From: an uncultured delta proteobacterium
GTDB taxonomy: Bacteria > Myxococcota > Myxococcia > SLRQ01
Length of the DNA stretch: 64,000 nucleotides
Assembly: GCA_963727485.1 (NCBI GenBank)
Contig: CAVSGM010000001.1
Span: forward strand, 1,120,001 to 1,184,000
Reading direction: 5' to 3'
Part shown: positions 6,465 through 26,473 of the stretch, piece after piece
Layout of the letters: each line of letters begins with the position of its first letter
How positions within the stretch are numbered: the first letter of the stretch is position 1
Notes under the pieces: generated by a model
What the model saw: the letters and a program-made list of their open reading frames with translations, nothing else
Database searches by the model: none
Told to the model about the DNA's origin: nothing
Translations under genes and position numbers: made by a program

Positions 6465-7802
6465 TCACCGATCCTTGCTGTAGAGACCGTGCTTGTGCAG
6501 CAGGTCGTAGAAGTACTTCCGGTTGAGGTGGGCCTCCCGGGCGGCGGCGGCGATGCGGCCACCGGCGCGCTCGAGGAGGCGCTCGAGGTACTCGCGCTCG
6601 AAGGCGTCGACCAGCGACTCCTTGGCCTCCTTGAAGGGCCGGGTGAAGTCGACGTCGGGGAGCGGGCCCTCGTCGTCGTCGTCGCCCGGGCCCACCGGAC
6701 CCTGGAGGCTCACGGTCTCGGCCCCCTCGAGGCCCAGGAACCGCAGGCGGTCGAGGACGTTGCGCAGCTCCCGGACGTTCCCCGGCCAGCTGTGGGCGAG
6801 GAGCTGCTCCCGGAGCGCCGGGGCGAACCCCCGCCAGCCCTCGGCCTCGCCGAGCAGCCGGCTGGTGAGGACCTCGAGGTCCTCGGTGCGCGCCCGGAGG
6901 GGCGGCAGCTCCACCCGGACCACGCTCAAGCGGAAGAAGAGGTCCTCGCGGAACCGTCCCTCGCGGACCAGGCGCGACAGGTCCTGCTTGGTGGCGGCGA
7001 TGACCCGGAGGTCCAGGTGCTTGGAGCGGGTGGAGCCCAGGCGCCGCACCTCGCGCTCCTCGAGGACCCGGAGGAGCTTGGGCTGGAGCTCGAGGGGGAG
7101 GTCGTCGATCTCGTCGAGGAAGAGGGTGCCCCCGTCGGCCTGCTCCAGGGCCCCGGCCCGGGCGCTCACCGCCCCGGTGTAGGCGCCCTTCTCGGCGCCG
7201 AAGAGCTCGCCCTCGATGAGGGTGTGGCTCACCGAGCCGCAGTCGACCACCACGAAGGGGCCGCCGGCCCGGTGGCTGGCGGCGTGGATCGCCCGGGCGG
7301 TGGCCCCCTTGCCGGTGCCGGTCTCGCCGGTGAGCAGGAGGGTGGCCTCGGTGGGCGCCACCCGCTCCAGGACCGCGAACACCCGGCGCATGGCCTGGCT
7401 TCTGCCCACCAGATCGCCGAAGTGGTCCTCGGTGGAGGGCGGCACCTCGTCGGCCTGGTACACCGGCTGGAAGAGGAGCACCACGTTGCCCACCTGGAGC
7501 CGGGAGCCGGGGCGGAGGTAGGCCTCGCGCACCCGGGTGCCGTCGACGAAGGTGCCGTTGGTCGAGCCCAGGTCGCGGATGAGGTAGCCCTCGTGGCGCT
7601 TCTCCACCATGCAGTGGTTCCGGGAGACCGCGGCGTCGGGGAGGCAGAGCCCCGAGGCCGGATCCTTGCCGATGGAGAGCGCCGCGCCGTCCAGGCGCAC
7701 CCGTCGTCCCGACTCCGGCCCCTCGAGGACCACCAGGGTGACCTCGCGCCGGGTGACCGCGGCGTTGGCCGTCGGCAGGACGTCGGTGCGCTCGATGCTC
7801 AC
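6465..7802 (-). CDS. FHA-domain sigma54-dependent transcriptional activator (FHA-AAA+-Fis HTH)
   Basis: GTG at 7802 overlaps the upstream stop. FHA motifs IGK...VSRNH...DLGSTNGT; Walker A GETGTGK; GAYTGA loop; LFLDEI; FREDLFFRL; WPGNVRELRN; C-terminal HTH. Confidence 0.93.
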   Translation of the reverse strand: MSIERTDVLPTANAAVTRREVTLVVLEGPESGRRVRLDGAALSIGKDPASGLCLPDAAVSRNHCMVEKRHEGYLIRDLGSTNGTFVDGTRVREAYLRPGSRLQVGNVVLLFQPVYQADEVPPSTEDHFGDLVGRSQAMRRVFAVLERVAPTEATLLLTGETGTGKGATARAIHAASHRAGGPFVVVDCGSVSHTLIEGELFGAEKGAYTGAVSARAGALEQADGGTLFLDEIDDLPLELQPKLLRVLEEREVRRLGSTRSKHLDLRVIAATKQDLSRLVREGRFREDLFFRLSVVRVELPPLRARTEDLEVLTSRLLGEAEGWRGFAPALREQLLAHSWPGNVRELRNVLDRLRFLGLEGAETVSLQGPVGPGDDDDEGPLPDVDFTRPFKEAKESLVDAFEREYLERLLERAGGRIAAAAREAHLNRKYFYDLLHKHGLYSKDR

Positions 7803-8374
7803 TTCCCGACCCACAGCACCTCGTTGTTGCCCCCCGAGGAGACGTAGGCCTTGTAGGCCTGCCACCAGGCGTCGGTGGCCTTCTCCAGGGCAATGCGAGC
7901 CGTCTCCGCCGTCTCCTGGGCCTTCTTGAGCCGGGCCCGGGCCGAGTCGGTGGACTTGTGGATGGGCTTGAGGTCGTAGACCGCCAGGTCGTAGCGCATG
8001 GCGGTCTGGGCGTTGGCCTGGACCCGCTTGGCCCGGGCGAGGTCGAGGTTCGCCCGGGCGGCGTCGAGCTCGAGCTCGCGGTAGCGCACCCGGTCCTCGG
8101 TGGCGGTCTTCAGCTTGGCCGCGGCGTCGGCGGCCTTGGCGCCGCTCGGCCACTTGGTGGTGGCCATGAGGTGGTCGCGCCAGGTCCGCGCCGAGTCGAG
8201 GTCCGATTGGGCCTCGTCGCGCCAGGCCCGGGCGATGGCGACCGCGTCCTCGGCGTCGGCGACCCAGCGCCGGGCCTTGGGGGGCAGGCGGGTGTCGTGG
8301 ATGGAGAGGGTCGCCACCGTCTGGGCGCAGCCCCCGAGGAGGAGCACCGTGGCGAGGAGGGGAAGCCGTCTCAT
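7799..8374 (-). CDS. Coiled-coil lipoprotein
   Basis: MRRLPLLATVLLLGG-C lipobox; Ala/Arg-rich helical heptads; 4-nt overlaps with both neighbours. Confidence 0.8.
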   Translation of the reverse strand: MRRLPLLATVLLLGGCAQTVATLSIHDTRLPPKARRWVADAEDAVAIARAWRDEAQSDLDSARTWRDHLMATTKWPSGAKAADAAAKLKTATEDRVRYRELELDAARANLDLARAKRVQANAQTAMRYDLAVYDLKPIHKSTDSARARLKKAQETAETARIALEKATDAWWQAYKAYVSSGGNNEVLWVGK

Positions 8375-11300
8375 GCGTTGCCTCCCTTCTTGGCGCCGGC
8401 CTTCTGGGGCGGGCGCTCCTGGGCGTTCTGCTTCTGCGGCGTCGCCGGGGCGGCCATGGAGCCGGCCCCCGAGAGCAGCCGGCCGCCGGCGCCGCCGGGC
8501 TTGAACTTCTTGAGCGCCGTGGTCGCGGCCTGGCCCAGGCCCAGCTGCTGGAGGCCGTAGGCGAGGTTCTTCCGGCCCGCCTCCAGGCCCCCGTCGGCGG
8601 CCTGGGCGAAGGCGTCGAGGGCGCCCTCGTAGTCGCCCGCCTGCCAGCTGGCCACCCCCAGGAGGTCCTGGTCGGTGGGGCCGCCGCCGCTGCTCGCGGC
8701 GTGGGCGAAGACCAGCCGCGCCGCGTGGGCGTCGCCGGCGTCGAGGAAGGCGGTGCCCAGCTTGCGCAGGCTGTCGAGGTCGTCGGGGTTCCGGGAGAGC
8801 TGGTTGCGCAGGTCTCCGAGGCCCTTGATGTCGGCCCCGGCCGCATGCCGCGGCTTGAGCTGGTCGAAGGCCACCGGGTCGTGGCTGGGGAGCTTGCCCG
8901 CCAGGCAGGCGCGCACCGCCGGGTTGAACTCGTGACCCGTCCACGCCTGGTTGGCGCAGGCCTCGAGGGCGTCCTTGGACTCGCTGCGGAGCTTGTCGAT
9001 GCGCTGCTGGAGGGCGCCGCGAACCTGCTTGGCCTGGTCGGCGGTGAGCCCCGGGGGCATCTTCATGTTGGCGAAGCGGTCGGCGCTGGTCTTGGCCATG
9101 TACGCCAGCCGCCCCAGGGCCGCGGCGGTGATGAGCGGGCTGCCCTGGCGCGCCGCCTTGAGGTAGCTCTCCTCGGTCACCTGGAGCAGGCCGATGAACT
9201 CCTGGATCGACTCGACGCTGGAGCCGAGCTGGTACTTCTCCAGGGCCGCGTTGTAGACCTCGGCGAGGCCGTAGTTGGCCCGGGCCTGGGCCCCGGTGGA
9301 GGTGCCCGCACCGGACTTCATCACCTGGTCGAAGGTGGCCTCGGCGGCGTCGGTGTTGCCCTGGCGGAGCTGGGCGAGGCCGAGGCGCGCCAGGACGTCC
9401 GGGCTCCCGTCGTCGGCGTAGGGCTGGAGGTGGCTGACGATGTCCGCCGGCCGCCCCTCGCGCTCGAGGAGCTCGGCGAGGTCGGCCTCGGGGGCGGACT
9501 TGGCCGGGCCCTGGGCCTGGGTGATGGCCGACTGGTAGGCCTTGCGGGCGTCGTTGTCGTCGGCGAGCTGCTCCTGGAGCTGACCGGCGGCCACCAGGAG
9601 GGTCACCCGCTCGGCGGGGTTGGCCTGGGCGGCCTTGTGGAAGAACTGGATCGCCCGGTCGAACTCGAAGCGCGCCGCGGCGGTCCGCGCCAGGGTGGAG
9701 AGGATGCCCGGGAGCTGGTCGCTCTTGGGGTACTTCTGGGCGATCTGGTCGCCGAGCTTGTAGAGGTCGGTGCTGTCACCCGAGGCCCGGGCGGCGACGA
9801 AGGCGTTGAGCAGGGCCCGCTGCCCCAGGTCGGTGCCGGCGTAGCGCTGGGCGAACTTCTCGAGCTGCTTGACCCCGCCGCCCTCCTCGCCGGCGGCCGA
9901 GAGCGAGAGCTCGTCGAGGCGGCGCTGCTCGGCGGCGAGGACGATGGGCTTGATCTTGGCCTTGAGGGTGTCGCCCGCGGGGCTGCCCCCGGCGAGGTAC
10001 CGCCGGCCGGCGTTGATGAGGCCCTCGTAGTCGTCGATGGTGTTGTAGGAGTCGAGGATGAGGTTGATGGCCGCGTCGGACTCCTGGCTGCCCGGGTACT
10101 CGTAGGCCACGGCGTTGAGGCGCTCGATGGCCTCCCGGTAGCGCCCCTCGTCGTAGTAGGTCTGGGCGATGGCGAACTTCACCCGCCTCGCCTTGTCCTT
10201 GCCCAGGCCGAGGCCGAGCAGCTCGGTGCCGGCCCGGCGCAGGGCCGCCCGGGCGACCACCCGGTCGACGTGGTTGGGCGAGACCTTGGCCAGGGCCTTC
10301 TGGAGCTGCACCACCGAGTCGTAGAGGTCGTCCTTCCGGTTGGCGGTCTCCTGCTTCTTCGTGTCGGCCTTCGCCTTCGCCTGCTTCTTCGCCGCCTTCT
10401 TCGGCGGCGGCAGCGGCTGCTGCGCCCGCTCCTTCAGCACGGTCGCGGCGGCGAGGTAGCGGCGCCCGGCGTCGAGGGGGTCCCCCGCCATCTTCAGCAT
10501 GTCGCCGAGGTTCTCCAGCATGTCGGCGCGGTGCCTGGTGTGGGGGAAGGCGTCGAGGTAGGCGCGGTCGGCCATCGCCACCTTGGCGGCGAAGCGGGCG
10601 CTCTTCTTGCGGAGGGCCACGGTCTGGGCCCGGGTCGCGAGGTCGCGGGTGTAGGCCTCGAACTCCTTGACCAGGGACGCCCGGCGCTGGTCGGTGGTCC
10701 CCGGCAGCTCGGACTCACGCCGGGCGGTGGTGGCGATGAGCGTCACGTCCTGGCCCACCTCGTGGTAGCTCTTGAGGCGCTTGAGGGCCGAGTAGAGCAT
10801 CCGGGCGTCGTCGAGGCGGTCGGTGCCGTCGGGCCCGAGGGTGAGCAGCTCCCGGCCCACGGCGATGGCCCCGATGGCCTGGTCCATGATCCCGTAGCGG
10901 GTGGCGAGCTTCTCCAGGGCGGCGACGTAGTCGACGCGGTTCGCCGCCAGGTGGTGGAGGTAGGCCACCGCGTGCTCGGGCTTCTTCTCCCGGCTGTAGC
11001 AGTAGGTGAGGTCGACCAGGGCCTCCCGGCGCACGTCGATGGAGCGGCCGGTGATGGTGGTGTCCTTGCGGTGGCGCTTGCCCTCGGAGGCCACGTGCTC
11101 CGCCCAGCCCTTGGAGGCGATGATCGCCTTCTCGAAGTCGGAGAGGGCGTTCTTGCAGTCGCCCTGGTTCACCTTCACCCAGGCCTGCTTGTAGAACGCC
11201 AGGCCGCTGATGCGGCTGGGCCCGCCGCCGATGATCTGCCCGTACCACTTGGCGGCGTCGTCGAGCTGGTTCTTGTCGAAGTGGTAGTCGCCGAGGGTGA

Positions 11301-11814
11301 GCAGGGCCTCGTTGGCCAGGGGGCTGGTGGGGTACTTGGCGACCATCTCCTCGAGGGTCGACTGCATCTTGTCGAACTCCCCGAGCTCGCGCTCCTCCTG
11401 GCCCACGTCGAGGAGGATCCGCGGCGCCAGGGACGTCTTGGGGTAGCGCCGGAGCACCATGTGGTAGGTGGAGATCGCCTCCTCCTTGAGGAGGCGCACC
11501 TGGGGCACGTGGAGCACCTTGCTGGAGCGCTGCTCCCGCTCGTAGGCGACCTGGTAGTGGTACTTCGCCTCCTCGGAGAGGAGCTCGGCGAGGCGCACGT
11601 AGAGCTCGGGGAGGTAGGGGGCGCCCTGGGAGCCGGCGATGGTCCGCCGGGTCTCGGAGATGGCGTGGCGCACCTTGGTGATGCGGATGCGCAGCTGCTC
11701 CACGTAGGGGGTGTCGTGGACCACCAGCTTGTGGTGGGCGCACCCGCCGGCGAGGGCGAGGAGGGCGGCGACGAGGCCGACGCGGCCCAGGGGCCCGAGG
11801 GTCAGTCGATGCAT
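8371..11814 (-). CDS. Large TPR-repeat lipoprotein, GltD(AgmU)/GltE-like
   Basis: Lipobox LAGG-C; many TPRs (YPTSPLANEALLTLGDYHFD, AFYKQAWVKVNQGD, REALVDLTYCY); position inside an agl/glt-like operon. Confidence 0.85.
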   Translation of the reverse strand: MHRLTLGPLGRVGLVAALLALAGGCAHHKLVVHDTPYVEQLRIRITKVRHAISETRRTIAGSQGAPYLPELYVRLAELLSEEAKYHYQVAYEREQRSSKVLHVPQVRLLKEEAISTYHMVLRRYPKTSLAPRILLDVGQEERELGEFDKMQSTLEEMVAKYPTSPLANEALLTLGDYHFDKNQLDDAAKWYGQIIGGGPSRISGLAFYKQAWVKVNQGDCKNALSDFEKAIIASKGWAEHVASEGKRHRKDTTITGRSIDVRREALVDLTYCYSREKKPEHAVAYLHHLAANRVDYVAALEKLATRYGIMDQAIGAIAVGRELLTLGPDGTDRLDDARMLYSALKRLKSYHEVGQDVTLIATTARRESELPGTTDQRRASLVKEFEAYTRDLATRAQTVALRKKSARFAAKVAMADRAYLDAFPHTRHRADMLENLGDMLKMAGDPLDAGRRYLAAATVLKERAQQPLPPPKKAAKKQAKAKADTKKQETANRKDDLYDSVVQLQKALAKVSPNHVDRVVARAALRRAGTELLGLGLGKDKARRVKFAIAQTYYDEGRYREAIERLNAVAYEYPGSQESDAAINLILDSYNTIDDYEGLINAGRRYLAGGSPAGDTLKAKIKPIVLAAEQRRLDELSLSAAGEEGGGVKQLEKFAQRYAGTDLGQRALLNAFVAARASGDSTDLYKLGDQIAQKYPKSDQLPGILSTLARTAAARFEFDRAIQFFHKAAQANPAERVTLLVAAGQLQEQLADDNDARKAYQSAITQAQGPAKSAPEADLAELLEREGRPADIVSHLQPYADDGSPDVLARLGLAQLRQGNTDAAEATFDQVMKSGAGTSTGAQARANYGLAEVYNAALEKYQLGSSVESIQEFIGLLQVTEESYLKAARQGSPLITAAALGRLAYMAKTSADRFANMKMPPGLTADQAKQVRGALQQRIDKLRSESKDALEACANQAWTGHEFNPAVRACLAGKLPSHDPVAFDQLKPRHAAGADIKGLGDLRNQLSRNPDDLDSLRKLGTAFLDAGDAHAARLVFAHAASSGGGPTDQDLLGVASWQAGDYEGALDAFAQAADGGLEAGRKNLAYGLQQLGLGQAATTALKKFKPGGAGGRLLSGAGSMAAPATPQKQNAQERPPQKAGAKKGGNA

Positions 11815-13280
11815 CGGTCCTCCGCGAAGACGACCAGGTCGTCGAGCTCGTCGGTCCAGAACTCACCGTCGAAGCGGTAGCCGACCTTCTTGCCGCCGAC
11901 CTGGATCTTCGGCGGCGGCGCCTCCGGGGGACCGCCGGGGCGCCGGCGCCCGCGGAGCAGGGCCACGGAGAGCTCGTGGAGGATGAGACGCACCCCCTCG
12001 TCGGCGGCCAGCAGGTCGTCGGCGAGGCCGTCGACCTCCCGGGAGAGGACCTCGTTCTCCCGGCGCTTCGCCTCGGCGATGCCCGCCTGGTAGACGTCCC
12101 GGAGGTGGAGGTAGAGGTCGGTGCCCAGCTTGCCGCGCAACCGCTTCACCGTCGCCGCCTCGCGCTCCAGGCGCTCCTTGTAGAGGGCGGCGGTGTGGGT
12201 CTGGCCCCGCTGCTCGGCGGCGGCGCGCAGGGCCCGGGAGTGGTCGAGGGGCACGCCGTCGTAGATGTCCTTGAGGGCGTCGCCGTGGCGCTCCCGGAGG
12301 CGGACCGCGGCGCGGCGGGCCGGGCCGAACTGGCACAGCCGCCGCAGGCACAGCGCCTCGAGGAGGAAGCGCTGGGGGGCGATGAGGTCGTGGTACTCCG
12401 GGGCGTCGAGGGCCAGGAGCAGGCCGAGCGCCCGGCGCGAGTCGCCCCGGTAGTAGTAGGTCCAGGCCATCTCCAGGAGCAGCTCGGGGTCGTTCGGCAC
12501 CAGCTTGCGGATCTTCCGGTAGTGGCCGAGCGCCTGGGCGTAGTCCTTCTGCTCGAAGAAGATCCGCGCCAGGCTCCGGTGGACCTTGGCGGCGAGGTCG
12601 GCGGGGAGGGTCTTGCCACCCCCGGCGAGGATGGCCTGGAAGGCCTTCACCGCGTCGTCGAGCTTGCGGGCCGCCACCAGGCGCACCGCCTGCACGTACC
12701 GGGCGCGCCAGTAGTAGCTGCTGGTCTTGGGGATCCGGGCGAAGCGCAGGTCGGCCCAGGCGTCGAGGCCCTCCCGGGCGCTGTCGAGGCCCTGCTCGTA
12801 GTCCACGAAGGGCTGGACGTCGGCGGGCAGGTCCGGGAGGTCGGCGGAGGCGATGAAGCCCCGGACCAGGGTGGCGTCGTCGTGGGGCCCGCCCATGACG
12901 ATGCGCATGATCCCGCGGACCGCCTCGGGCACCAGGGTGGGATCGCGGCGGGCCCGGGCGATGTCGAGGTAGCGGAGGCTGGCGGCGTAGGTCAGCCCCA
13001 GCTTCTCCTCGCTCTCGCCGATGAGGCGCTCGGCGCGGTCGTAGCGCGGGTCGTCGGTGGTGGCGCCCTTGAGGTAGTGGAACGCCGCGGCGGAGGCCAC
13101 CGCCGGGCTGCCCCCCTGGGTCGCCCGCACCGCCATGGCGTAGGCGTCGTCCCGGTCCTTGGGCACGTGGGTGGTGGCGCAGGACGCCAGCAGGCACGCC
13201 AGCGCCACCACGCCGGCCCGCCGCCCCCCCGGCCACCTGCGGGGATCAGAGCGAGAGGCCGAGGCCGATCCAGAGCTCAT
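11802..13280 (-). CDS. GltC-like TPR lipoprotein
   Basis: Lipobox LLAS-C; TPRs (IPKTSSYYWRARY, LLEMAWTYYYRGD..RALGLL); C-terminal F.GEFW.DEL....C motif typical of GltC-family proteins. Start uncertain. Confidence 0.82.
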   Translation of the reverse strand: MSSGSASASRSDPRRWPGGRRAGVVALACLLASCATTHVPKDRDDAYAMAVRATQGGSPAVASAAAFHYLKGATTDDPRYDRAERLIGESEEKLGLTYAASLRYLDIARARRDPTLVPEAVRGIMRIVMGGPHDDATLVRGFIASADLPDLPADVQPFVDYEQGLDSAREGLDAWADLRFARIPKTSSYYWRARYVQAVRLVAARKLDDAVKAFQAILAGGGKTLPADLAAKVHRSLARIFFEQKDYAQALGHYRKIRKLVPNDPELLLEMAWTYYYRGDSRRALGLLLALDAPEYHDLIAPQRFLLEALCLRRLCQFGPARRAAVRLRERHGDALKDIYDGVPLDHSRALRAAAEQRGQTHTAALYKERLEREAATVKRLRGKLGTDLYLHLRDVYQAGIAEAKRRENEVLSREVDGLADDLLAADEGVRLILHELSVALLRGRRRPGGPPEAPPPKIQVGGKKVGYRFDGEFWTDELDDLVVFAEDRCID

Positions 13281-13874: not shown

Positions 13875-16769
13875 TCATGAGGGGACGCTGCGGAACATGA
13901 AGGGATAGGCGATGCTCACGCTGCCGCCCTTGGGGCGGGGAAAGCGCATCCGCTTGATCACGCGGATGATGCAGCGGGACACCTTGGCGTCGTTCATGCT
14001 GCTGGAGCGCTCCCGGGCGGTGGACACCCGGCCGCTGGCCAGCACCGTCCACTGGAACTCGACCTTGCCGCCGAGGCCCGGGTGGTGATTGAGGGCGCGC
14101 TCGTAGCAGCCCTGGATCTGGCCGAGGTGCTCGTTGATGACCTTGAGCACCTGGGAGCGGGAGAGGCTGCCCGAGACCCGGGCCAGGGCCCGGATGCCGC
14201 TGACCCGGCCGCGGACATGGCCGCCGCCGCCCCGGCCCCGGAGCTTGCCCACGCCGTTGCCGGCGATCTCCTTGCCGGAGAGGGTGCCGATGTCACCGCC
14301 CCCGCCGGTGGCGAGGTTGACCTTGCCGCCCTTGAGGGCCGCGAGCGTCCCCGCCACCTTGAAGGCGCCGTGGCTGTGGCCGGACTTGCCGCCCACCGCG
14401 TCGATGTTGGAGACCACGTCCTTGAGGGTCTTGCCGTTGCCGGCGACCGGCGAGCGCAGGGCGTTGAGCAGCGAGGTGGTGCCGCCGCCGCCCCGGCCCC
14501 CGCCGTGGTGGCGGAAGCGCTTGGTGATCCGGGCGATGCGCCGCTGGAGGCGCTTGGGGATCTGGGGCTGCGCCTCGGTGGGATCGGCGCGCCGGAGGGG
14601 GATGACCTTCGGGTGGTGGCGGCGGCGCTTCTTGTGGTGGACCCGGTGGTGGGCGAGCTTCTTCGGGGTCTTGAGCTCGGCGAAGCGCTCGGCGAGCTTG
14701 GTGTTGGCCACCGGGATCTTCACGCCCACCACGCTGGAGAGCATGAAGGCGAGGAGCAGGAGCATGTGGATGCCCACGGCCCCGCCGATGCACGCGCCCC
14801 AGACCTTGGCGGCGAAGGGGCTCCGGGGGCTCCGGGGCGGCGCCGGTGGCCGGTAGACCCGGACCCGGTACTGGAAGCCCTCGTGCTCGAGGAATCGAGG
14901 CGGTCGTTCTCGTCGAGGACCACCTTGGCCGGGCCCAGGAGGGACTCCTGGCCACCCCTCGCGCGCCGCAGCAGGCCCTGGGCGTTCTCCGGGAGCTTGA
15001 CGGTACAGGTCCGCGGGCCCATCCGCGCCAGGTGCGGGTGGCGCCGGGCCCGGTAGCCCTGGAACGCCCGGAGCACCGCCGAGTCGAGGATGGTGGCGCC
15101 CTGGTGGAAGAGCACCTCGGCGACGGGCTTCTCCTCGCTGCTGCCGATGGGCGAGGAGGCCGGTCCGTCGCTGGCGCCGAGGAGCGCCTCGAGGGGCAGC
15201 TCCGGGAGCAGGGGGACGTCGTCCTCGTCGTCGTCGTCGGGGATGGGCCCGGTGGCGTCCACCGGGTACTCGAGGCTCCGCGACGCCGGCGCCGGCGAAC
15301 GCGACGGAGGGGGCGCCGGGGGGGGCGGCTGGGGCCGGGGAGGCGCGCGGGTGGCCGGGGCCGGCTGGGGCTGGGCGGTGGACCGGGTGGGCTGCCGCGC
15401 CGCCGGGGCCTGGGCCGCGGGGTCCGGGAGGGCGGGGTAGGCCGGGAGGGTGGCCTCGCCCCCCACCGGAGGCGCCTGGCGCGCGGGGGCGGTGGGCGGC
15501 GCCGCCTCCGGCCAGGGCGAGGCCTGGGGCCGGGGCGGCGGGGTGGCCATGGAGTCGAGGAGGGAGCGGGGGACGTGGGTCTCCTGGGTGACCGTCTCCT
15601 CGAAGGAGACCGCCTCCACCGCGTCGTCCCGGCCCTCGGGGCCCGCGAGGCTGCGCAAGAGCTCCGGCGGCACCTTCATCTGCACCGTCTCGTCGAAGGC
15701 ATCGTCGAGGGGCGCCGACCCGTCCGGGGCGGTGGTGTTCACCGCGGACGCCTCGGGCTCGTGGACGAAGACGGTGGAGATCTCGGCTGACCACCTCGGG
15801 CTCGATCTTCGCCGCGTCGCTCTGGATGACCTTCGCCCAGGCCGCGAGCCGGTCGGGGAAGAGGCTCTGCATGTACCGGGAGAGGTGGACCGGGGTCACC
15901 GGGGTGCCCTGGCCGTGGATGAACCGCTCCAGGGCGAGGTGCATCTCGTGGCAGTCCTGGAACCGGCGGTCCGGGTCCTTCTCCAGGGCCTTGAGGACGA
16001 TGGCGTCGAGGTCGGCGGGGATGCCCCGGCGCATGGTGCGCGGTGCCACCGCCGGCTGCTCGCAGATGGCGCGCACCAGGGCGAGGTCGCTGTCGGACTC
16101 GTAGAGCCGGGCGCCGGTGACCAGCTCCCAGAGCACGATGCCCAGCGCGAAGATGTCCGAGCGGTGGTCGAGGGGCTGGCCGCTCGCCTGCTCCGGCGAC
16201 ATGTAGCCGTAGTTGCCCTTGACCATCCCCACCCGCGTCGACTGCACCTTGGTGGCGGCCTTGGCGATGCCGAAGTCGACCACCTTCACCTGCCCCTGGT
16301 AGGAGAGGATGAGGTTCGCCGGGCTCACGTCCCGGTGGACCAGGTGGAGGGGGCGCCCGTCGTTCCCGGTCTTGGTGTGGGCGTAGTAGAGCGCCTCGCA
16401 GACCTGGGAGACGACCTTGGCGGCGTAGGTGACCGGCATCGCCATGTTGCCGCGGTCGGAGAGGCGCCGCTCCACGAAGTGGAGGTTCTCGCCCCGGACG
16501 AACTCCATGGCGAGGAAGTAGTCCTTGCCGTCCTGCCCGAGGTCGAAGAGCTGGACGATGTTGGGGTGGTCGAGCTGTGCCGCCAGCCGGCCCTCGTCGA
16601 GGAACATCTGGACGAAGTCGGCGTTCGCCGCCAGGTGGGGCAGGATGCGCTTGATGACGACGAGCTTCTGGAACCCGCCCACGCCATGCTGGCGGGCGAG
16701 CCAGATCTCGGCCATCCCGCCGGTGGCGAGGTGGTGCAGCAGCTCGTAGCGACCGAGCTTGCGGCTCAA
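13875..16769 (-). CDS. Ser/Thr protein kinase fused to a GltG-like protein (Pro-rich linker, TM helix, Gly-rich region, TonB-C/AgmX-PglI C-terminal domain); two compensating frameshifts
   Basis: TTG start at 16769. Kinase motifs GRYELL, GGMAEIW, VIKRI, HRDVSPAN, DFG, YMSPEQ. Reading moves to frame 14720..15742 near 15787 and back near 14895. TM GAVGIHMLLLLAFMLSS; C-terminus IQGCYERAL...GKVEFQW...CII..IKRMRFPRPKGGSVSIAYPFMF. Confidence 0.8.
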   Translation of the reverse strand: MSRKLGRYELLHHLATGGMAEIWLARQHGVGGFQKLVVIKRILPHLAANADFVQMFLDEGRLAAQLDHPNIVQLFDLGQDGKDYFLAMEFVRGENLHFVERRLSDRGNMAMPVTYAAKVVSQVCEALYYAHTKTGNDGRPLHLVHRDVSPANLILSYQGQVKVVDFGIAKAATKVQSTRVGMVKGNYGYMSPEQASGQPLDHRSDIFALGIVLWELVTGARLYESDSDLALVRAICEQPAVAPRTMRRGIPADLDAIVLKALEKDPDRRFQDCHEMHLALERFIHGQGTPVTPVHLSRYMQSLFPDRLAAWAKVIQSDAAKIEPEVVSRDLHRLRPRARGVRGEHHRPGRVGAPRRCLRRDGADEGAAGALAQPRGPRGPGRRGGGGLLRGDGHPGDPRPPLPPRLHGHPAAPAPGLALAGGGAAHRPRAPGASGGGRGHPPGLPRPPGPRGPGPGGAAAHPVHRPAPAGPGHPRASPAPAAPPGAPSVAFAGAGVAEPRVPGGRHRAHPRRRRRGRRPPAPGAAPRGAPRRQRRTGLLAHRQQRGEARRRGALPPGRHHPRLGGAPGVPGLPGPAPPAPGADGPADLYRQAPGERPGPAAAREGWPGVPPGPGQGGPRRERPPRFLEHEGFQYRVRVYRPPAPPRSPRSPFAAKVWGACIGGAVGIHMLLLLAFMLSSVVGVKIPVANTKLAERFAELKTPKKLAHHRVHHKKRRRHHPKVIPLRRADPTEAQPQIPKRLQRRIARITKRFRHHGGGRGGGGTTSLLNALRSPVAGNGKTLKDVVSNIDAVGGKSGHSHGAFKVAGTLAALKGGKVNLATGGGGDIGTLSGKEIAGNGVGKLRGRGGGGHVRGRVSGIRALARVSGSLSRSQVLKVINEHLGQIQGCYERALNHHPGLGGKVEFQWTVLASGRVSTARERSSSMNDAKVSRCIIRVIKRMRFPRPKGGSVSIAYPFMFRSVPS

Positions 16770-17252
16770 CGGTGCCCCTTCTTGTCGTGGTAGCCGGGTC
16801 CGAGGACCGGATCGACGATCAGGTGGAGGTAGCTCTGCTTCAGCTTGAGGAGCGGGGGGAGGCGCCGGGGCGCCCGGTTGAAGAGGTACACCGCGCCGTG
16901 AGGAGGCGGTCTGGCCCTGCACCAGGCGGGCGTCGAACTCCATGACCCGGGAGCGGCGCAGGGGGCTGCCGTTGCCGCCGGCGGCGGCCTTGCCGTCGGC
17001 GGCCGCCGGGGCCGGGGTGACGGAGGCGGTGGCCGGCGCGGCGGCCTTGGGGGGCGGCGCCTGCTTCTTCTCGACGCGGTGGCGGCGGTGACGCACGCGC
17101 CGGTGGCGCCGCCGGCGGCGACGGTGGCTGCCGCAGTCGGTGGCGCGGGCCCGCACGCCGGCCGGCGACCCGGCCCGGGCGGCCCGGGGGGCCACGAGCG
17201 CCAGCATCGCCGCGAGGGCGAGAGTGGGGGCGAGGGTGCGCATGGAGCTCAC
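16766..17252 (-). CDS. GltF/CglF-like small periplasmic protein (frameshift near 16900)
   Basis: Signal peptide and RVMEFDARLVQGQTAS, continuing after a one-base shift as GAVYLFNRAPRRLPPLLKLKQSYLHLIVDPVL...; TGA at 16766-16768 overlaps the kinase TTG. Confidence 0.75.
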
Positions 17253-17797
17253 TTCTTCATGATGGCCAGGCGGTACTTGTCGAAGCCGGCGATGCGGGCC
17301 GAGCGCATCACCAGGTAGAGCGTCTTGTAGGAGAGCCCCTTGTCGGCCTGGATCACCACGATGTCGGCGTCCGGGGTCTGGTCGTCGCCGCTGTCGGCGG
17401 AGTCGCCCTGGTCGTCCTGGTTCGCCTGGTCGTCCTTGGCCTTGGCCGCCGCATCGTCGCCGTTCGGGTGGTGCGCCTTGTAGGCGGCGGTCATCGCCTG
17501 GACCACGGCGTCGATCTGGCCGGCGTCGTAGTCGTCGGCGGGGGCCTTTCCGTGGTCGAGGGAGAAGATCTTCTTCTTGGCCACGAACACCCCGGCCTCG
17601 GTGACGGCCATGTTCACCGCCGGCTTGAACACCGAGTGCGCGGTGCTCTCGGGGAGCTTGAGGTCGGGGCGGAGCTTGAAGTTGTAGTCCTCGTTGCTGA
17701 AGCTGACGATGAGGAAGATGAGGATGATGGTGAACATGTCGAGAAGCGAGGTCAGCATCAGCGCTGGCGGCTTCTTCGCAGACGCGCGGTGTCTCAT
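17249..17797 (-). CDS. ExbD/TolR family protein (AglS-like)
   Basis: TM LTSLLDMFTIILIFLI with the conserved Asp; LKLPEST; IQADKGLSYKTLYLVMRSA..AGF. Confidence 0.92.
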   Translation of the reverse strand: MRHRASAKKPPALMLTSLLDMFTIILIFLIVSFSNEDYNFKLRPDLKLPESTAHSVFKPAVNMAVTEAGVFVAKKKIFSLDHGKAPADDYDAGQIDAVVQAMTAAYKAHHPNGDDAAAKAKDDQANQDDQGDSADSGDDQTPDADIVVIQADKGLSYKTLYLVMRSARIAGFDKYRLAIMKK

Positions 17798-18351
17798 GGC
17801 GTCGCCCCTCCCGTGTCCCCGTCCTTGGGTTTGAGGATCCGGCTGAACACGGTCACCGGGAACAGGGGCTTGTGGAGCGGGTCCTTGGTCTTGCCCTGGT
17901 CGATGATCTGCTCACGGGTGGTGTCGAGGACCGCCACCAGGGAGTTGTAGGAGATGCCGTCGTCGGGGAGCACGATGACGGTGTCGCTCTTGGGGTACTG
18001 GCCCTTGATCTGGATCAGCCGCGCCTGGAGGGCCTTGAGGTCGTAGGCGCCGTTCTTCTTGGGGACCTCGAGGCTCATGTCCGAGAGCTCGGAGTCGGGG
18101 ATGTTGTTGCCGGTGGCCGAGAGCTCGAGCTTGTCGGGGAGCACCTGGAGGTTGAGGGTGACGGTCTTGGTCTTGTCCGGGTGCGGGTTGCCCTGGGGCA
18201 CGTGGGTGGGCAGCGACGAGGGGATGACTCCGATGTGGTAGAACGCCGCGCCCATCAGCAGGAACGGGATCAGGGTCATCATCAGGTTCATGATCGGAAT
18301 GAGGTTGAGGTCGTCGACCTCATTCTTCGCCTGACGCCATCTGTCGAACAT
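17794..18351 (-). CDS. ExbD/TolR family protein (AglQ-like)
   Basis: LNLIPIMNLMMTLIPFLL TM; YDLKALQARL..IK..YP...VIVLPDDGISYNSLVAVLD...LFP. Confidence 0.9.
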   Translation of the reverse strand: MFDRWRQAKNEVDDLNLIPIMNLMMTLIPFLLMGAAFYHIGVIPSSLPTHVPQGNPHPDKTKTVTLNLQVLPDKLELSATGNNIPDSELSDMSLEVPKKNGAYDLKALQARLIQIKGQYPKSDTVIVLPDDGISYNSLVAVLDTTREQIIDQGKTKDPLHKPLFPVTVFSRILKPKDGDTGGATP

Positions 18352-18373
18352 GAGTGGGAGCCCTTCGGCGGAA

Positions 18374-19078
18374 TCAGGCGACGGCGGAGCCGCCGCCACG
18401 GGTCGCGGTGGTCACTCCGGAGCCCGAGGGCGGGCCGCCTGGGGCGTGCATCTCGCGGACCGAGCCGGTGAGGCCGACCATCAGCTCGGTGGCCCCGCCC
18501 TCGATCTCCATCACGATCTGCTCCTGGCGACCGGAGAGGAAGTGGTGGAAGAAGAGGAACGGCACCGCGACCACGATGCCGAAGGCGGTGGTGTACATGG
18601 CCTGGGAGATGCCGTCGGCGAGCGCGGTCTGCCGCTGGGCGGCGCTGGCCGCGGCGACGCTGGCGAAGGCGCCGATGAGGCCGAAGATGGTGCCGAGGAG
18701 CCCCAGCAGGGTGGCGGTGTTGGCGAGGAGGCCCAGGAGCGCCACCCGCTTGCCCAGGTGGGGCAGGGCCACGAGCATCTCGCCCTCCATCGCCCGCTCG
18801 ATCTCCTTCTCCCGGCGGTTGGCCTTGAGGAGCCCGGCGCGCATGACGTTGATCAGGGGGTGCTTGGAGCGGATCTCGCAGGCGTCGAGGGCCTGGCGGT
18901 ACCGGCGTCCCTCGACGTGGCCGAGGATGGTGTCCATGAAGCCCCGGAAGTCGAGCTTGCGCAGGACGTAGAGGTTGAAGGCCCGCTCGAGAAAGATGAC
19001 CGTCCCCACGATCGAGACGGCCAGGATCACGTACATGACCCAGCCGCCCTTGCTCAGGTACTCGAGGAGGATGCTCAT
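18374..19078 (-). CDS. MotA/TolQ/ExbB proton channel protein (AglR-like)
   Basis: LANTATLLGLLGTIFGLI..F and LADGISQAMYTTAFGIVVA family motifs. Confidence 0.95.
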   Translation of the reverse strand: MSILLEYLSKGGWVMYVILAVSIVGTVIFLERAFNLYVLRKLDFRGFMDTILGHVEGRRYRQALDACEIRSKHPLINVMRAGLLKANRREKEIERAMEGEMLVALPHLGKRVALLGLLANTATLLGLLGTIFGLIGAFASVAAASAAQRQTALADGISQAMYTTAFGIVVAVPFLFFHHFLSGRQEQIVMEIEGGATELMVGLTGSVREMHAPGGPPSGSGVTTATRGGGSAVA

Positions 19079-19991: not shown

Positions 19992-21962
19992 TCACGGCCC
20001 GGTCCCCCCGGAGACGTCCGGCCGCACGAACTCCTCGTCGTAGACCTGCACCACCGCGTCCGGCGGCGAGCGGTGGTCGGGCGGGAGGTACTGCACCGGG
20101 AGGTGGGCCATGCGAACCGGCCCCGGGGTCGAGATGCGATCCTCCGGCGCCTCGGCGAAGTAGAGGAAGATGTTGTTCCAGCCGGTGCCGGTACCGTCGA
20201 CGTCCAGGGTCTTCATCAGCCGGACGTTGCGGACGGTGTACTGGAGGCACTGGCGCTTGCGGAAGATGATGCGGACGGTCTGGACCACGTCCTGGGGCGG
20301 CAGGGCCGAGGGGGTGACGGTCACCTTGATCATCCGCCCGGCGTCGCCCTGCACCGGGGCGTAGGACGAGGAGGGGAGCGAGATCTCGCCACCCTGGCCC
20401 ACCGAGACCGCCGGGCCGGGGTTGGCGTCCTTGACGTCCTGCCAGCTCATGGAGGGGGCGCTCCCGGAGAAGAAGCGCAGGGTGCCCAGGCCCTGGGTCG
20501 ACCCCGGCGAGATGTAGCTGATCTTCACCCCGGTGAGCTGGTCGAGGTGGGACGAGGTGGGCTGGATCTGGATGCCCTCGTCGGTGATGTCGTAGCGGTA
20601 GCCCCGGGCCAAGAGGTGGCTGGCGTCGCTGGAGCGGGGATCGGTGTGGTCGGCGATCTCGTCGCCGTTGGAGATCCCGTCGCCGTCGGTGTCCTTGGTG
20701 GCGTCGGGGTTGAGGTAGTCGGTCCCCATGACCACCTCCTGCCGATCCGGTGACCCGTCGCCGTCGGTGTCCACCAGGGAGGGGTCGGTGCCGAGGAGCG
20801 CCTCGTCGCAGTCGGTGAGGCCGTCCTCGTCGAGGTCGTGGCCCACCTTGAGGCCGTCGCAGGCCGCCGGGGTGTCCTTCTTCAGGGGATCGAAGCCGAC
20901 GAGCTCCTCGACCAGGTCGGTGATGCCGTCCCCGTCGGTGTCCATCTTCTTGGGGTCGGTGCCCAGCGCCTTCTCCTCGGCGTCGGAGAGGCCGTCCCCG
21001 TCGGAGTCGACCACCGGCCCGTCCGCGGTGGGCAGGGCGTTGACGTTGGAGACCACCAGGTGCTTCGCCTTGAGGATGGTGCGCAGGTCGAGGACGTCGA
21101 GGTCGGTGATGTTGAAGGTGTTGGGCGAGTTGAAGCGCTCGTAGACCCCGCCGCCGGCGAAGGCCATGTGCTCCATCTCCTGGCCCACCGCGTCGTTGTC
21201 CGCGGCCACCGGCTCGGCGGCGAGGTGGAGGACGTGGAGCCGGAGGCCCGCGGCGCCGGCGTCGGCGACCGCCTGGCGCATGGCCACCACGTCGGAGACC
21301 TCGATCTGGGCCTGACAGGTCTGGGAGGGGTGGTTGCCCGAGGCGATGCAGGCCACGTCCCCGGGCTGGCAGCAGGCCGAGGCGTCGGTGAGCGGGGTCT
21401 GGGGCCCGGAGTTGATGAGGATGACGACGTACTGGGTCAGCACCCGCTCCCCGGCGGGCATCTGGGCCATGTCGCCCTCGATGAGGGCCCGGGCCGAGCG
21501 GAGGCCCTCGCGGTAGTTGCGGCAGGTCGCCTGGCCGTTGCAGTACCGGGGCAGGGAGAGCTGGGTGACGGCGTTGAGGAGCACCCCGGGGTTCCGGGTG
21601 AAGTCCCCGGTGGCCGGGGCCAGCTTCTTGGCCGAGCCTGCGTAGCCCACCACCGCCAGCTCGTACTCGGGCTTGGAGAGGGCGGACTGGATGAACTTGG
21701 AGAGGACCTGGAGGCGCAGGCCCGCCGGGTCGAAGCCGGCGTAGAGGGGGCCGGCGGCCTGGTCGACCACCAGCACCACCCGCACCGGGAACCGGGCGGT
21801 CACCGGGTCGTCGGTGCAGACCTCGCCGCTCACCGCCAGGCGGTCGGCCTGCGCCGGGGCCCGGTAGCGGTGGTAGAGGTTCGCCTTGCTGCAGCCGGCC
21901 ACCAGGACCAGGAGCGCCGCCAGGCCCAGGGCCCGGGCCCGATGTCTCGCCGGCGCGGTCAC
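19992..21962 (-). CDS. VWA-domain lipoprotein with Ca-binding DxDGDG repeats (Mts-like, probably MtsE-type)
   Basis: Lipobox LVAG-C; GEVCT...FPVRVVLVVDQ; repeated DTDGDGxxDxxE..GTDP; paralogous to 24310 and 26470. Confidence 0.85.
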   Translation of the reverse strand: MTAPARHRARALGLAALLVLVAGCSKANLYHRYRAPAQADRLAVSGEVCTDDPVTARFPVRVVLVVDQAAGPLYAGFDPAGLRLQVLSKFIQSALSKPEYELAVVGYAGSAKKLAPATGDFTRNPGVLLNAVTQLSLPRYCNGQATCRNYREGLRSARALIEGDMAQMPAGERVLTQYVVILINSGPQTPLTDASACCQPGDVACIASGNHPSQTCQAQIEVSDVVAMRQAVADAGAAGLRLHVLHLAAEPVAADNDAVGQEMEHMAFAGGGVYERFNSPNTFNITDLDVLDLRTILKAKHLVVSNVNALPTADGPVVDSDGDGLSDAEEKALGTDPKKMDTDGDGITDLVEELVGFDPLKKDTPAACDGLKVGHDLDEDGLTDCDEALLGTDPSLVDTDGDGSPDRQEVVMGTDYLNPDATKDTDGDGISNGDEIADHTDPRSSDASHLLARGYRYDITDEGIQIQPTSSHLDQLTGVKISYISPGSTQGLGTLRFFSGSAPSMSWQDVKDANPGPAVSVGQGGEISLPSSSYAPVQGDAGRMIKVTVTPSALPPQDVVQTVRIIFRKRQCLQYTVRNVRLMKTLDVDGTGTGWNNIFLYFAEAPEDRISTPGPVRMAHLPVQYLPPDHRSPPDAVVQVYDEEFVRPDVSGGTGP

Positions 21963-22633
21963 GGAGACCCTCCGTCGCTCGGCTCGCAGGCGGCCTTCAC
22001 CGGTCCGGTGGCCGCGGCGCCCTCGCAGGCCGCCGGGGTCCCGCCGAACTCGGTGACCTGGCAGATGCCCTTCACGCAGGTCTGGCCGAAGGCGCACTTC
22101 ACGCCGAGGCAGTCGCGGGTGAGGCCGACGCTCACGTCGGCGGCGCCCTGGGTGGGAAACGAGACCCGGGCCTCGATGGTGGCCACCGGCGCCCCCTGCT
22201 TGAAGGCCTGGACCACCACCCACATGTCGCCGTGCCCATCCCTTAGATCAAAGGAGAGGGGCAGGTTGGCCGCCTGGCCGATCACGCAGCTGCCGGCGCC
22301 CGCGCCCCCGTCGGAGGTCCCGGCGTCGGCGGCGCCGCCACCTCCGGTGCCCCCGTCGACGCCGGCGCTGCCCCCGTCGACGCCGGCGGTGCCCCCGTCG
22401 GCGTCCGAGGGCGTGAACAAGTCCTGGGTGCCGTCGTAGACCGGGTTGCGATCGGCGTCGAGGAGCGTAACCCCGAGGGCGTCTACGTCGTCCGGCACAC
22501 GCACGTCCCCGCAGACGTGGAGGTGGACGCGCGGTCCATTCCCACATCCGGCGAGGAGCAGGGCGCAGACGACGAGCCCGCCGAGGGGCCGCGTTCGCGC
22601 GCGGCGGGGGTCACCCCGGTACCGGAAACGCAT
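21959..22633 (-). CDS. Lipoprotein with DGG low-complexity linker and Cys-rich C-terminus
   Basis: LLAG-C lipobox; [18 protein letters not shown]-terminal [17 protein letters not shown]; first gene of the leftward operon. Confidence 0.75.
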
Positions 22634-22784
22634 GGTCCGGCGATTCTACCGAGAGGCGGCTCCCAGGGAAATGTAGGCTCTGCCATCCAGGCCTGTATGG
22701 TTCGCCACACACCTTCGCGACGCCGGGCGACCATGTGCGTCGGTGTGGGTCACCAGGATCCGGCAGGTTGGCGGATCGGCGCCG

Positions 22785-22801
22785 CCGGCACGGCCGTTGC
22801 A
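22785..22801 (+). promoter_or_regulatory. Sigma54 (-24/-12) promoter of the mts-like operon
   Basis: CCGGCACGGCCGTTGCA: GG(22787-8)-N10-GC(22799-800), near consensus TGGCACG-N4-TTGC; 57 nt upstream of ATG 22858. Confidence 0.75.
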
Positions 22802-22857
22802 GCCTTCCCCAGGGAACGCCGGCAGCCCCGGCCAGACACGCTCCCGAGGAGGACCCG

Positions 22858-24222
<1,365 letters not shown>

Positions 24223-24244
24223 GTGCGACCAGACCGTCGACGGG

Positions 24245-24279
24245 ACGGCGCGGGCGGGGATCCTTCCCTCCCGCGCCGT
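24245..24279 (+). other. Strong intergenic stem-loop after the mtsC-like gene
   Basis: ACGGCGCGGG (24245-54) pairs with CCCGCGCCGT (24270-79), with further inner pairing; no U-tract. Confidence 0.6.
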
Positions 24280-24309
24280 TCGCGTGCGACGGCAGAAAGA
24301 GGTGGTGTG

Positions 24310-26473
24310 ATGCGTGCGCCGACCCTTCGGCTCCTCACCCTGGCAGCGCTCTTCGCCGCCATCGCCGGCGGGGCCTGCACCAACGCCCGGCTCCAGCCGA
24401 AGGAGCAGGCGCAGATCACCACCTACGACAACCTGCTGAAGATCAAGGGCGAGCTGTGCACCCAGCCCGCCGACAAGGTCACCTTCCCGGTCAAGATCCT
24501 CTTCCTCCTCGACCAGTCGGCGTCGCTCCAGTGCACCGACGCCACCAACCACCGGTTCGCGGCCCTCAACCGGGTGATCAACTCGCTGCTGCCCCTGCCC
24601 AACGTCTACTTCGGGTTCGTGGGCTTCTCCTCCTGGTCCCGGCGGCAGGACTTCACCCGGAACATGAACGACATCCGGCCGTTCCTCGATTCCCGCCGGG
24701 GGCCTGGGGCCGGCCACCGACTACCAGGGGGCGCTGGCCACCGCCATCCAGATGGTGGAGCAGGACATGATCAGCTCGGGCCCGGCGGTGCGGGCCCGCA
24801 CCAAGTACGTGGTGGTGCTGATGTCCGACGGCATCCCCGAGCCGCGGTGCAACGCCGGGTGCGAGGACGACAAGAACGCCTGCAGCGACGGCCGGGACAA
24901 CGACGGCGACGGCCTCATCGACGCCGCCGACCCCGACTGCGCCAACATCAACGACAACAGCCTCCACCCCGACAACCTCTATGGGGTGTGCAACACCACC
25001 GAGGACTTCCGCAAGAGCCGGGCCCCGGGCAGCTACGTGGACATGTCGGGCATCTGCCCGGCCTACAACCAGCCGCCGCAGATCATGGCGCGCATCGCCG
25101 ATCTCCTGGCCCTCTCCGACGCCTACTCCGCCGGGAGCGTGACCCTCAACACCGTGCTCCTCTTCGCCGACCAGGCGGCGGTGAACGCGGTCTGCCCCAA
25201 CGCCGGGCCCCAGTTCGGCTACGACCACGACCAGGCCAAGGCCCTCCTCGAGGCCATGGCCCAGGCGGGCAACGGGACCTTCCGCGACGTCAACCTCCAG
25301 AAGGCCGACGACACCTTCCTCGACTTCAACTTCACCTCGCTGTCGAGCCAGTACTGGCTCACCGAGATGGTCGCCCGGGACGTCAACGAGGTGCCCACCC
25401 TCAAGGGCCCCATCCCCGACAGCGACGCCGACGGGCTCTCCGACGACGAGGAGAACGCCCTCGGGACCGACCCCTTCAACCCCGACACCGACGGCGACCA
25501 CTACTCGGACCTCTTCGAGGTGCGCTACTCGGGGGCCGGGTTCGACCCCCTGGATCCCAACGCCCCGGCGCTCAACTGCCCGAGCAGCTCCGACCTCGAC
25601 GGCGACGGTCTCGACGACTGCGAGGAGAACTTCCTGGGCACCGACCCCCGCCTCCCGGACAGCGACGGCGATCGCCTCACCGACGGCCTGGAGCTGGTGG
25701 AGCACACCGATCCCACCACCGCCGACGCCCTCGCGGACCCCGACTTCGACGGGATCCTCAACCGTGAGGAGATCCGCGCCGGCACCCTGCCCCTGGTGCC
25801 CGATCTCTCCCGCTACCGCACCGACGCGGTGCGCTACAGCCTCGACGATCTCGGGGACAAGACGGTGGTGAACCCGGACACCGGCAACAAGGAGCTGCGC
25901 CGGTGCTACGATTTCGGGGTGAGCCACCTCGAGCTCGTCACCACGCCCCTGACCAAGGAGCGCGGCCGCAACCGCATCATCCTCCAGGCCCTCGAGGAGC
26001 CGGTGCAGCTGGTGGGGGCCCGGCCGGTGGCCACCGAGGCCTGCGTCGAGGCCTTCTACGACGGCAACACCTTCAAGGACCCGCCCAGCGGGGTGGTGGA
26101 TTCGACGCAGAGCTACTGGGACAATCTCCGGGACGCGTTCTCGGCGCGGATGGACGACATCGCCACCGCCTGCGGCAAGAACCCCAAGAGCTTCAACCGC
26201 AACACCCTCGAGCAGATCATGAACACCTGCCTCCCCGCGAGGCCCCAGGTCGGCGACTATCTCTACGACAAGGCCGACCTCAAGAAGCTGGTGGAGAAGT
26301 ACCTGACCCCGAACCTCAACGCGAACGTGCCCACCGACGCCTGGCAGATCTTCCACCCGATGGAGACCTTCGACCCGGCCACCGACTGCGTGCGCCCCTG
26401 GGAGATTGGCCGGCTGCAGCAGCTCTTCCGCACCATCCAGGACGCCTGCGCCAAGTGCGGAGGGGGCCCGTGA
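24310..26473 (+). CDS. VWA-domain lipoprotein with DxDGDG repeats (MtsD-like); frameshift at ~24691
   Basis: Lipobox AGGA-C; GELCT...FPVKILFLLDQSAS MIDAS. Removing one T at GATTC 24688 joins frames 24223.. and 24752.. (FLDPAGGLGPATDYQGAL...MSDG). Confidence 0.85.

Follow-up and report, generated by a model that had tools for sequence, protein, structure and literature searches.

The window analysed here is a stretch of 64,000 nucleotides (nt) from an uncultured delta proteobacterium (Myxococcota, SLRQ01; contig CAVSGM010000001.1 of assembly GCA_963727485.1, positions 1,120,001 to 1,184,000). On its minus strand lies a gene that fuses a Hanks-type Ser/Thr kinase to a GltG-like transducer of the TonB/TolA type, within an operon that also encodes stator subunits, TPR proteins and an outer-membrane barrel (Table 1). 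From the N terminus, the protein consists of the kinase (residues ~5–320), a low-complexity linker with a terminal acidic motif common to the family (about 15176–15247), a beta domain (546–641), one hydrophobic transmembrane (TM) helix (~654–688, containing GAVGIH), a stalk and an AgmX/PglI domain. The gene begins with a TTG overlapping the upstream stop codon, and its own stop overlaps the following ATG. The kinase matched the Pkinase profile at E 2e-36, and the AgmX/PglI match bears out the TonB-C-like end seen in the original prediction, which had been made from the letters of this DNA alone. TIGR01352 (TonB C-terminal) reached 19.7 bits, under its cut-off of 27.1, and PF03544 had no match on the raw open reading frame (ORF). 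The GltG profile NF033760 matched partially, with 112 bits on the C-terminal piece and 108.9 on the raw ORF. Judged by its domains, the fusion protein probably works like GltG/TonB, yet it falls outside GltG by this curated test (112 vs 650 bits).

Table 1. Features of the fusion gene and its operon (window positions; aa, amino acids)
Feature	Position	Strand	Remarks
Kinase-GltG-like fusion, single gene	13875..16769	-	~963 aa after discounting 3 spurious bases
Hanks-type kinase domain	15810..16769	-	VVIK Lys, alphaC Glu, HRD, Asn, DFG present
Pro/acidic low-complexity linker	15140..15787	-	~220 aa including kinase tail
Membrane-proximal FHA-like beta domain	14844..15133	-	homologous to central domain of canonical GltG
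Predicted single TM helix, A-x3-H, partial TonB/TolA SHLS motif	14703..14807	-	His codon 14766-14768
Basic, Gly-rich stalk, predicted periplasmic, GltG-like	14166..14702	-	
AgmX/PglI C-terminal (TonB-C-like) domain, NF033768	13890..14165	-	107.8 bits vs cut-off 40
Assembly error 1, one surplus base	15784..15788	.	short-read contigs (X1, X3, X4) and Viterbi
Assembly error 2, two surplus bases	14892..14895	.	short-read contigs (X1 only) and Viterbi
MtsD-like protein, upstream marker of operon class	19992..21977	-	below cut-off
TolQ/ExbB/AglR-like stator subunit	18374..19078	-	PF01618
ExbD/TolR-like subunit, Asn at TM Asp position	17794..18399	-	PF02472
ExbD/TolR-like subunit, TM Asp	17249..17797	-	PF02472
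Small exported protein, GltF position	16766..17252	-	no family match
Myxobacterial outer-membrane beta-barrel, TIGR04565	13246..13878	-	above cut-off
TPR protein, GltC-like	11802..13280	-	below cut-off
Large TPR protein, likely GltD-type partner	8371..11814	-	

In the assembled sequence, the reading frame of the fusion gene switches near 15788 and back near 14895, as seen in the GC content of third codon positions and in a codon-usage Viterbi analysis trained on 966 ORFs of the same genome (shift 1 at 15788, shift 2 at 14895). The original prediction had placed both shifts at these positions and called them compensating. Public short-read contigs have one base fewer at 15784 in three of four runs (X1, X3, X4) and two bases fewer at 14892 in run X1 only, there in a single 507-nt contig of depth 5.85 covering 14781–15289; X1 is possibly related to the source sample, whereas X3 and X4 represent relatives ~93% alike at the 15784 junction. 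The shorter form restores the reading frame in every case. The shifts are insertion errors of one and two bases rather than a +1/-1 pair, and the corrected ORF is therefore 3 nt shorter than the assembled one, encoding ~963 aa. The kinase frame is free of stop codons, as is the middle frame across 15898–14722, and no stop separates the kinase from the GltG-like part at the corrected junctions.

Homologues fused in one frame exist as well. In G003, a genome of the same family, the gene order is conserved and a 1143-aa protein is encoded from kinase to AgmX without a break, its stalk containing a run of N. G004 (same family) runs in one frame from the kinase through the TM helix until its contig ends, the remaining operon lying on another contig, and P0167 is a further single-frame fusion from kinase to TM helix, cut after the latter. 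The G002 copy is interrupted by a contig end. The fusion query had no match at E <= 1e-40 in G001 (same family, 97% complete) and none among plasmids, and no RNA data set was listed as carrying it. Short-read contigs and intact homologues thus confirm the kinase-GltG fusion as real and as one gene, as originally proposed. That two separate genes, a kinase and a GltG-like one, were joined merely through assembly error is highly improbable and largely refuted: the assembly contains several indels (three within these 3.5 kb, one more in the gliding GltG), a stop at 15741 in the third frame shares bases with a GTG at 15742, and the second junction is spanned by one contig from one run, but the +1 correction from three runs opens into the middle frame and bypasses the stop, this frame scores as coding upstream of GTG 15742 (6.2 vs -13.1 and -17.5), and G003 is intact throughout, G004 and P0167 from kinase to TM helix. 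A boundary at the stop/GTG overlap was ruled out by the short-read contigs together with the codon-usage scores. One argument first advanced for the fusion, the stop-free raw frame shared by the kinase and TonB-C ends, had to be abandoned as proof: in this genome of 73% GC, 419 of 622 real genes have an equivalent off-frame without stops over 297 codons, so that such a frame is weak evidence. The third indel, one surplus base near 16899 (16898–16899) that is absent from all four runs, splits the small gene at the GltF position.

The cytoplasmic beta domain of the original prediction is present, and its identity could be narrowed down. Its profile aligned over 67 columns with the central domain found in canonical GltG (E 1.4e-4, score 27 vs a shuffled maximum of 16.8). 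A model of the corresponding domain from the G003 homologue reached a block pLDDT (per-residue model confidence) of 92–98 over most of residues 51–190, and the top VIA rows for this model were FHA domains (3poa with Z 7.0, root-mean-square deviation 2.6, 80 residues aligned). An Atlas search returned leads all under 0.9, the named ones all from one FHA-like clan; the profile found nothing convincing among sequences of solved structures (best E 0.013), and Foldseek gave no match to the model at E <= 0.001. On profile and model, the beta domain is the membrane-proximal FHA-like domain of GltG, retained in the fusion protein. In work on the gliding machinery, Attia et al. treat this central domain as another FHA, with a predicted position against the pore of AglR (PMC11761067); two-hybrid binding of AglR to GltG and a predicted contact through FHA and TM helix have been published (PMC3169522, PMC11761067). 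The window protein has no N-terminal FHA domain, and its linker, unlike those of G003 and P0167, holds none either.

The kinase fold is closest to the PEGA-domain Ser/Thr kinases, with 62–65% identity, and its nearest tree neighbour is a PEGA-type kinase of the same genome (C9:114548). The fused kinase thus derives from the myxobacterial PEGA-type receptor kinases that are common in these genomes. PEGA-type kinases carry a Ser in the catalytic loop where PknB has Lys and, in place of a Thr of PknB, a Lys following the Gly that precedes the APE motif. Both motifs were readable in 114 of the best 120 kinase matches: 107 combined HRDxS with G-K, five HRDxK with G-T, and the two exceptions (Ser with G-N or G-H) were the two GltG fusions listed among these 120. 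The Lys after Gly was accordingly present in 107 of 109 kinases of the Ser type. Of the 34 kinase domains in the own genome, 25 could be read, and 16 of 17 of the S/T type had G-K, the fusion gene being the sole exception. Its catalytic loop reads HRDVSPAN and its second motif G-N, compared with HRDVKPAN and G-T in PknB; G003 has G-H at the second place. The consensus given in PMC2887360 is DLKPEN. The label "intact RD kinase" therefore holds for the K/E/HRD/N/DFG set but overstates the domain, which lacks both the catalytic-loop Lys and the Lys that covaries with this loss. If the Lys after Gly does the work of the missing catalytic-loop Lys, a kinase without either should be impaired, and we infer such catalytic impairment for the window kinase. 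A single-sequence structure model of the kinase (pLDDT 33.6) was not used. A second, stand-alone kinase on the plus strand (32350–33213) has HRD altered to H-L-D.

To place the fusion among its relatives, 127 long homologues, some of them redundant, were classified by seed search, leaving aside 35 shorter or multi-repeat proteins and G004. Their N-termini comprised an FHA domain in 67, a kinase fold in 26, both in 2 and TPR repeats in 21, while 11 were initially unassigned. A fused-kinase profile, applied to 10 of these 11, gave five full-length matches (E 2.6e-25 to 2.4e-8) and one weak, truncated match, and matched none of ten TPR/FHA controls. In all, kinase-fold GltG-type proteins numbered 36 with the window protein, not counting P0109 (different architecture) and P0054 (fragment). 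Only five have complete K/E/HRD/N/DFG motifs (window, G003, G004, P0167, P0093), and four of the five belong to the family of the window protein; the kinase fold is degenerate in the other 31 (24 scored, 7 judged by eye). P0109 has a canonical Lys-type kinase directly before the TM helix, two AgmX/TonB-C tails and no FHA-like domain, and is probably a fusion of independent origin.

One and the same operon carries four alternative N-termini on its transducer, namely a motif-complete kinase (window, G003, G004), a degenerate kinase (L031, L092, L094), TPR repeats (L093) or an FHA domain (L096). For the C-terminal half, a 43-row IQ-TREE tree required two label changes, from FHA to kinase (SH-aLRT 80) and, nested within, to TPR (99), and a 123-row FastTree tree of the same half placed 52 rows in a kinase/TPR clade with support 100. 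A single origin of the fused kinases was not rejected (p-AU 0.116); motif-complete and degenerate forms made up separate supported groups, possibly through long-branch attraction. All carriers with names are metagenome-assembled genomes (MAGs), one of Lujinxingiaceae and others of Deltaproteobacteria, so the scope for direct tests is limited.

The G-R and S-x-x-H residues of FHA domains bind phosphothreonine. Both motifs occur in the N-terminal FHA of all seven canonical GltG proteins, in keeping with the FHA originally ascribed to GltG, and are missing in 34 of 51 more distant relatives and in all 16 of the nearest FHA-type relatives, including the FHA beside the kinase in G003 and P0026. The earlier idea of a phospho-reader replaced by a phospho-writer is not supported in that form by these comparisons: the FHA-like domain is kept, G003 and P0167 hold a kinase together with an N-terminal FHA, the FHA of the nearest relatives lacks the reader motifs, and most of the kinase folds are degenerate.

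The TM helix with its His was recovered as predicted. This His is kept in 43 of 45 clade members and in 18 of 21 TPR forms. The residue four positions ahead is Ala, Ser or Gly in 26, 11 and 6 clade members, respectively, the other two SHLS positions are variable, and the window protein has A, H, F and S at the positions of S-x3-H-x6-L-x3-S. Canonical GltG has a mid-helix His in none of seven proteins, so the His rule of TonB/TolA is not simply transferable to GltG. The Ser-His pair of TonB and TolA touches the stator, according to the parts of PMC12215075 and PMC12204202 that treat this contact, and the former proposes that the His transmits signals; GltG and kinases are unmentioned in the passages of PMC12204202 on this contact. 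In the genes adjoining upstream of the fusion gene, PF01618 and two PF02472 domains scored above cut-off (the TolQ alignments span TM2–3 only). Gene order and the TonB/TolA analogies make it quite probable that the fusion protein couples to this neighbouring stator. Aligned clade members with adjacent stator genes keep the TM His, and several stator-less loci keep it too, so that the link between His and stator is one-way only. The His-less transducers L061 (G063, 7627–10290), L025, L026, L027 and L029 had no stator genes in the stretch examined.

The two ExbD subunits are unequal: across 11 loci scanned, the window counted, the Asn form occurs in 7 and the Asp form in 10, including a cluster of the own genome at C1:81300. 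The plug may thus be a heterodimer in which just one Asp can be protonated. Between the stator genes and the fusion gene lies the gene for the small exported protein, at the position of GltF. Upstream (19992–28215), a series of genes for MtsD-like and repeat-rich surface proteins, Asp-rich and thrombospondin-like by eye, includes at least one further apparent frameshift near 24450–24750. The last gene of the operon, here as in G002 and G003, encodes by eye an FHA-type sigma-54 activator (6465–7800), a possible downstream reader of phosphorylation.

Three more GltG-like genes exist in the own genome, whose best match to gliding GltG (587 bits) lies on contig C11. Because a better gliding GltG exists elsewhere in the genome, the window operon represents a paralogous machine equipped with a stator of its own. 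The gliding GltG (L075, 8196–10400) is frameshifted close to the 3' end, probably by another assembly indel, and has by eye a TM Gln where the kinase/TPR clade has His. For such paralogous Glt clusters, Luciano et al. (PMC3169522) report that mutants show no motility defect, and Wartel et al. (PMC3858216) that one paralogue, Nfs, moves spore-coat polymer.

Compared with known systems, the fusion protein shares with GltG the membrane-proximal FHA-like domain, the single TM helix, the Gly-rich periplasmic stalk, the AgmX/PglI end and the TPR and outer-membrane barrel neighbours, and differs in its N-terminal kinase, its TM His and its own stator genes, where GltG has a motif-complete N-terminal FHA. 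It also resembles an MtsD-linked Glt paralogue cluster of Myxococcus-like relatives, which is the best match in f2-family relatives, has the same order of outer-membrane protein, TPR and TPR genes, and presumably equals G5/MXAN_1327 of Luciano 2011. An MtsD-like gene lies within 20 kb in two of five such loci; unlike the window protein, however, their proteins begin with an FHA domain and are without the TM His in all 4 that were aligned, with no stator genes in the stretch examined (5 of 5). With TonB and TolA it has in common the TM motif small-x3-His, a long periplasmic linker, a TonB-C-like end and adjacent TolQ/ExbD genes, in contrast to its ~650-aa cytoplasmic part, the Ala instead of Ser at His-4 and the two unequal ExbD subunits. 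PEGA kinases of the HRDxS/G-K type are the source family of the kinase domain, with PknB as the nearest solved structure, but they lack the fusion to a transducer via a long linker and an FHA-like domain and have the near-invariant lysine lost here. The MviN pseudokinase and FhaA of Mycobacterium, in the sections of a 2025 review of bacterial pseudokinases that cover them (PMC12599244), offer a non-catalytic kinase fold with an FHA controlling an envelope machine; the host protein is unrelated, so this is analogy only. The terms TonB, Myxo and gliding are absent from the main text of that review, and outside subscription papers and supplements we found no published description of a kinase-GltG fusion.

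These observations are compatible with several mechanisms. In the one we favour, to which we would give an even chance, the protein is an inner-membrane, GltG-like force transducer of the upstream TolQ/ExbD motor and its tethered kinase mainly a docking module with weak or residual catalysis. If TonB/TolA and the published AlphaFold model of Agl-Glt are taken as guides, the A-x3-H helix and the FHA-like domain would pack on the TolQ-like pentamer, whereas the stalk and AgmX/PglI domain would grip the TPR proteins and the outer-membrane barrel, so that force could pass from the neighbouring proton-driven motor to the outer envelope. The kinase fold would substitute for the N-terminal FHA of GltG in recruiting a cytoplasmic platform. 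Binding is the simplest function for a module that TPR repeats can replace and that is degenerate in 31 of 36 proteins. The neighbouring MtsD-like genes weakly suggest a role in cell-surface adhesion or polymer handling.

Several points weigh against this docking role. The window kinase retains the full set of five canonical catalytic residues as well as the Gly-rich loop, and G004 and P0093 still have the G-K lysine, whose substitution for the catalytic-loop Lys is deduced from covariation and from PKA geometry. The kinase is also the best-conserved part of the protein (69% identity to G003 vs 48% for the C-terminal part), and its branch is short like those of stand-alone kinases (0.19–0.4; degenerate ones 0.12–1.69, mostly above 0.35), which fits retained catalysis. 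Moreover, the FHA-to-kinase branch has a support of just 80, and the fold Z-scores of the FHA-like domain, obtained with a model of the G003 homologue, are middling at no more than 7.0.

Accordingly, a fully active kinase deserves consideration as a less probable, though by no means negligible, alternative. Transducer clustering on motor or envelope contacts would switch it on to phosphorylate its own linker or cytoplasmic partners, and the family of the window protein would be a catalytically live branch within a mostly degenerate clade. Besides the complete motifs in five proteins and the strong conservation, this would agree with the activation-segment Thr in all three family members, a D/E-E/A-T-x-Q motif found by eye after the kinase in the window protein, G003, G004 and P0167, and the FHA-type sigma-54 regulator downstream in the operon. 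Yet three of the five motif-complete members have lost the covarying lysine, and both the degenerate homologues and the TPR forms that occupy the same place speak against it. A receptor kinase set directly by the conformational state of the motor via the TM helix, supplanting a phospho-reading FHA, seems unlikely. The conserved TM His, the adjoining stator genes and the signalling proposed for the TonB/TolA His (in the passage of PMC12215075 cited above) would favour such a receptor, but the ~220 low-complexity residues, together with a folded FHA-like domain between kinase and membrane, argue against direct coupling of this kind; the FHA that was replaced is no canonical phospho-reader (both motifs in 0 of 16), and the His is equally kept in TPR forms and absent mid-helix from canonical GltG.

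More speculatively, and in our estimate rather doubtful, the family of the window protein may be the living active root of the clade, a proton-motor transducer whose Ser/Thr kinase would signal, through clustering, that the motor is engaged; with similar reserve, its relatives may record the steps from FHA through kinase plus FHA, kinase and pseudokinase to TPR. If true, force at the envelope would be tied directly to protein phosphorylation. In the published structural model (PMC11761067), it is on the cytoplasmic side that Agl/Glt-type motors could not be resolved. An N-terminal module that is exchangeable between FHA, kinase, pseudokinase and TPR on a constant operon points to the input or anchoring site of these machines. 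What the present locus contributes is the end of the series closest to an active kinase, together with a lysine loss specific to its lineage, and family members that differ in this lysine provide a compact natural series for the change from enzyme to scaffold, in which a proton motor may be wired to phosphorylation.

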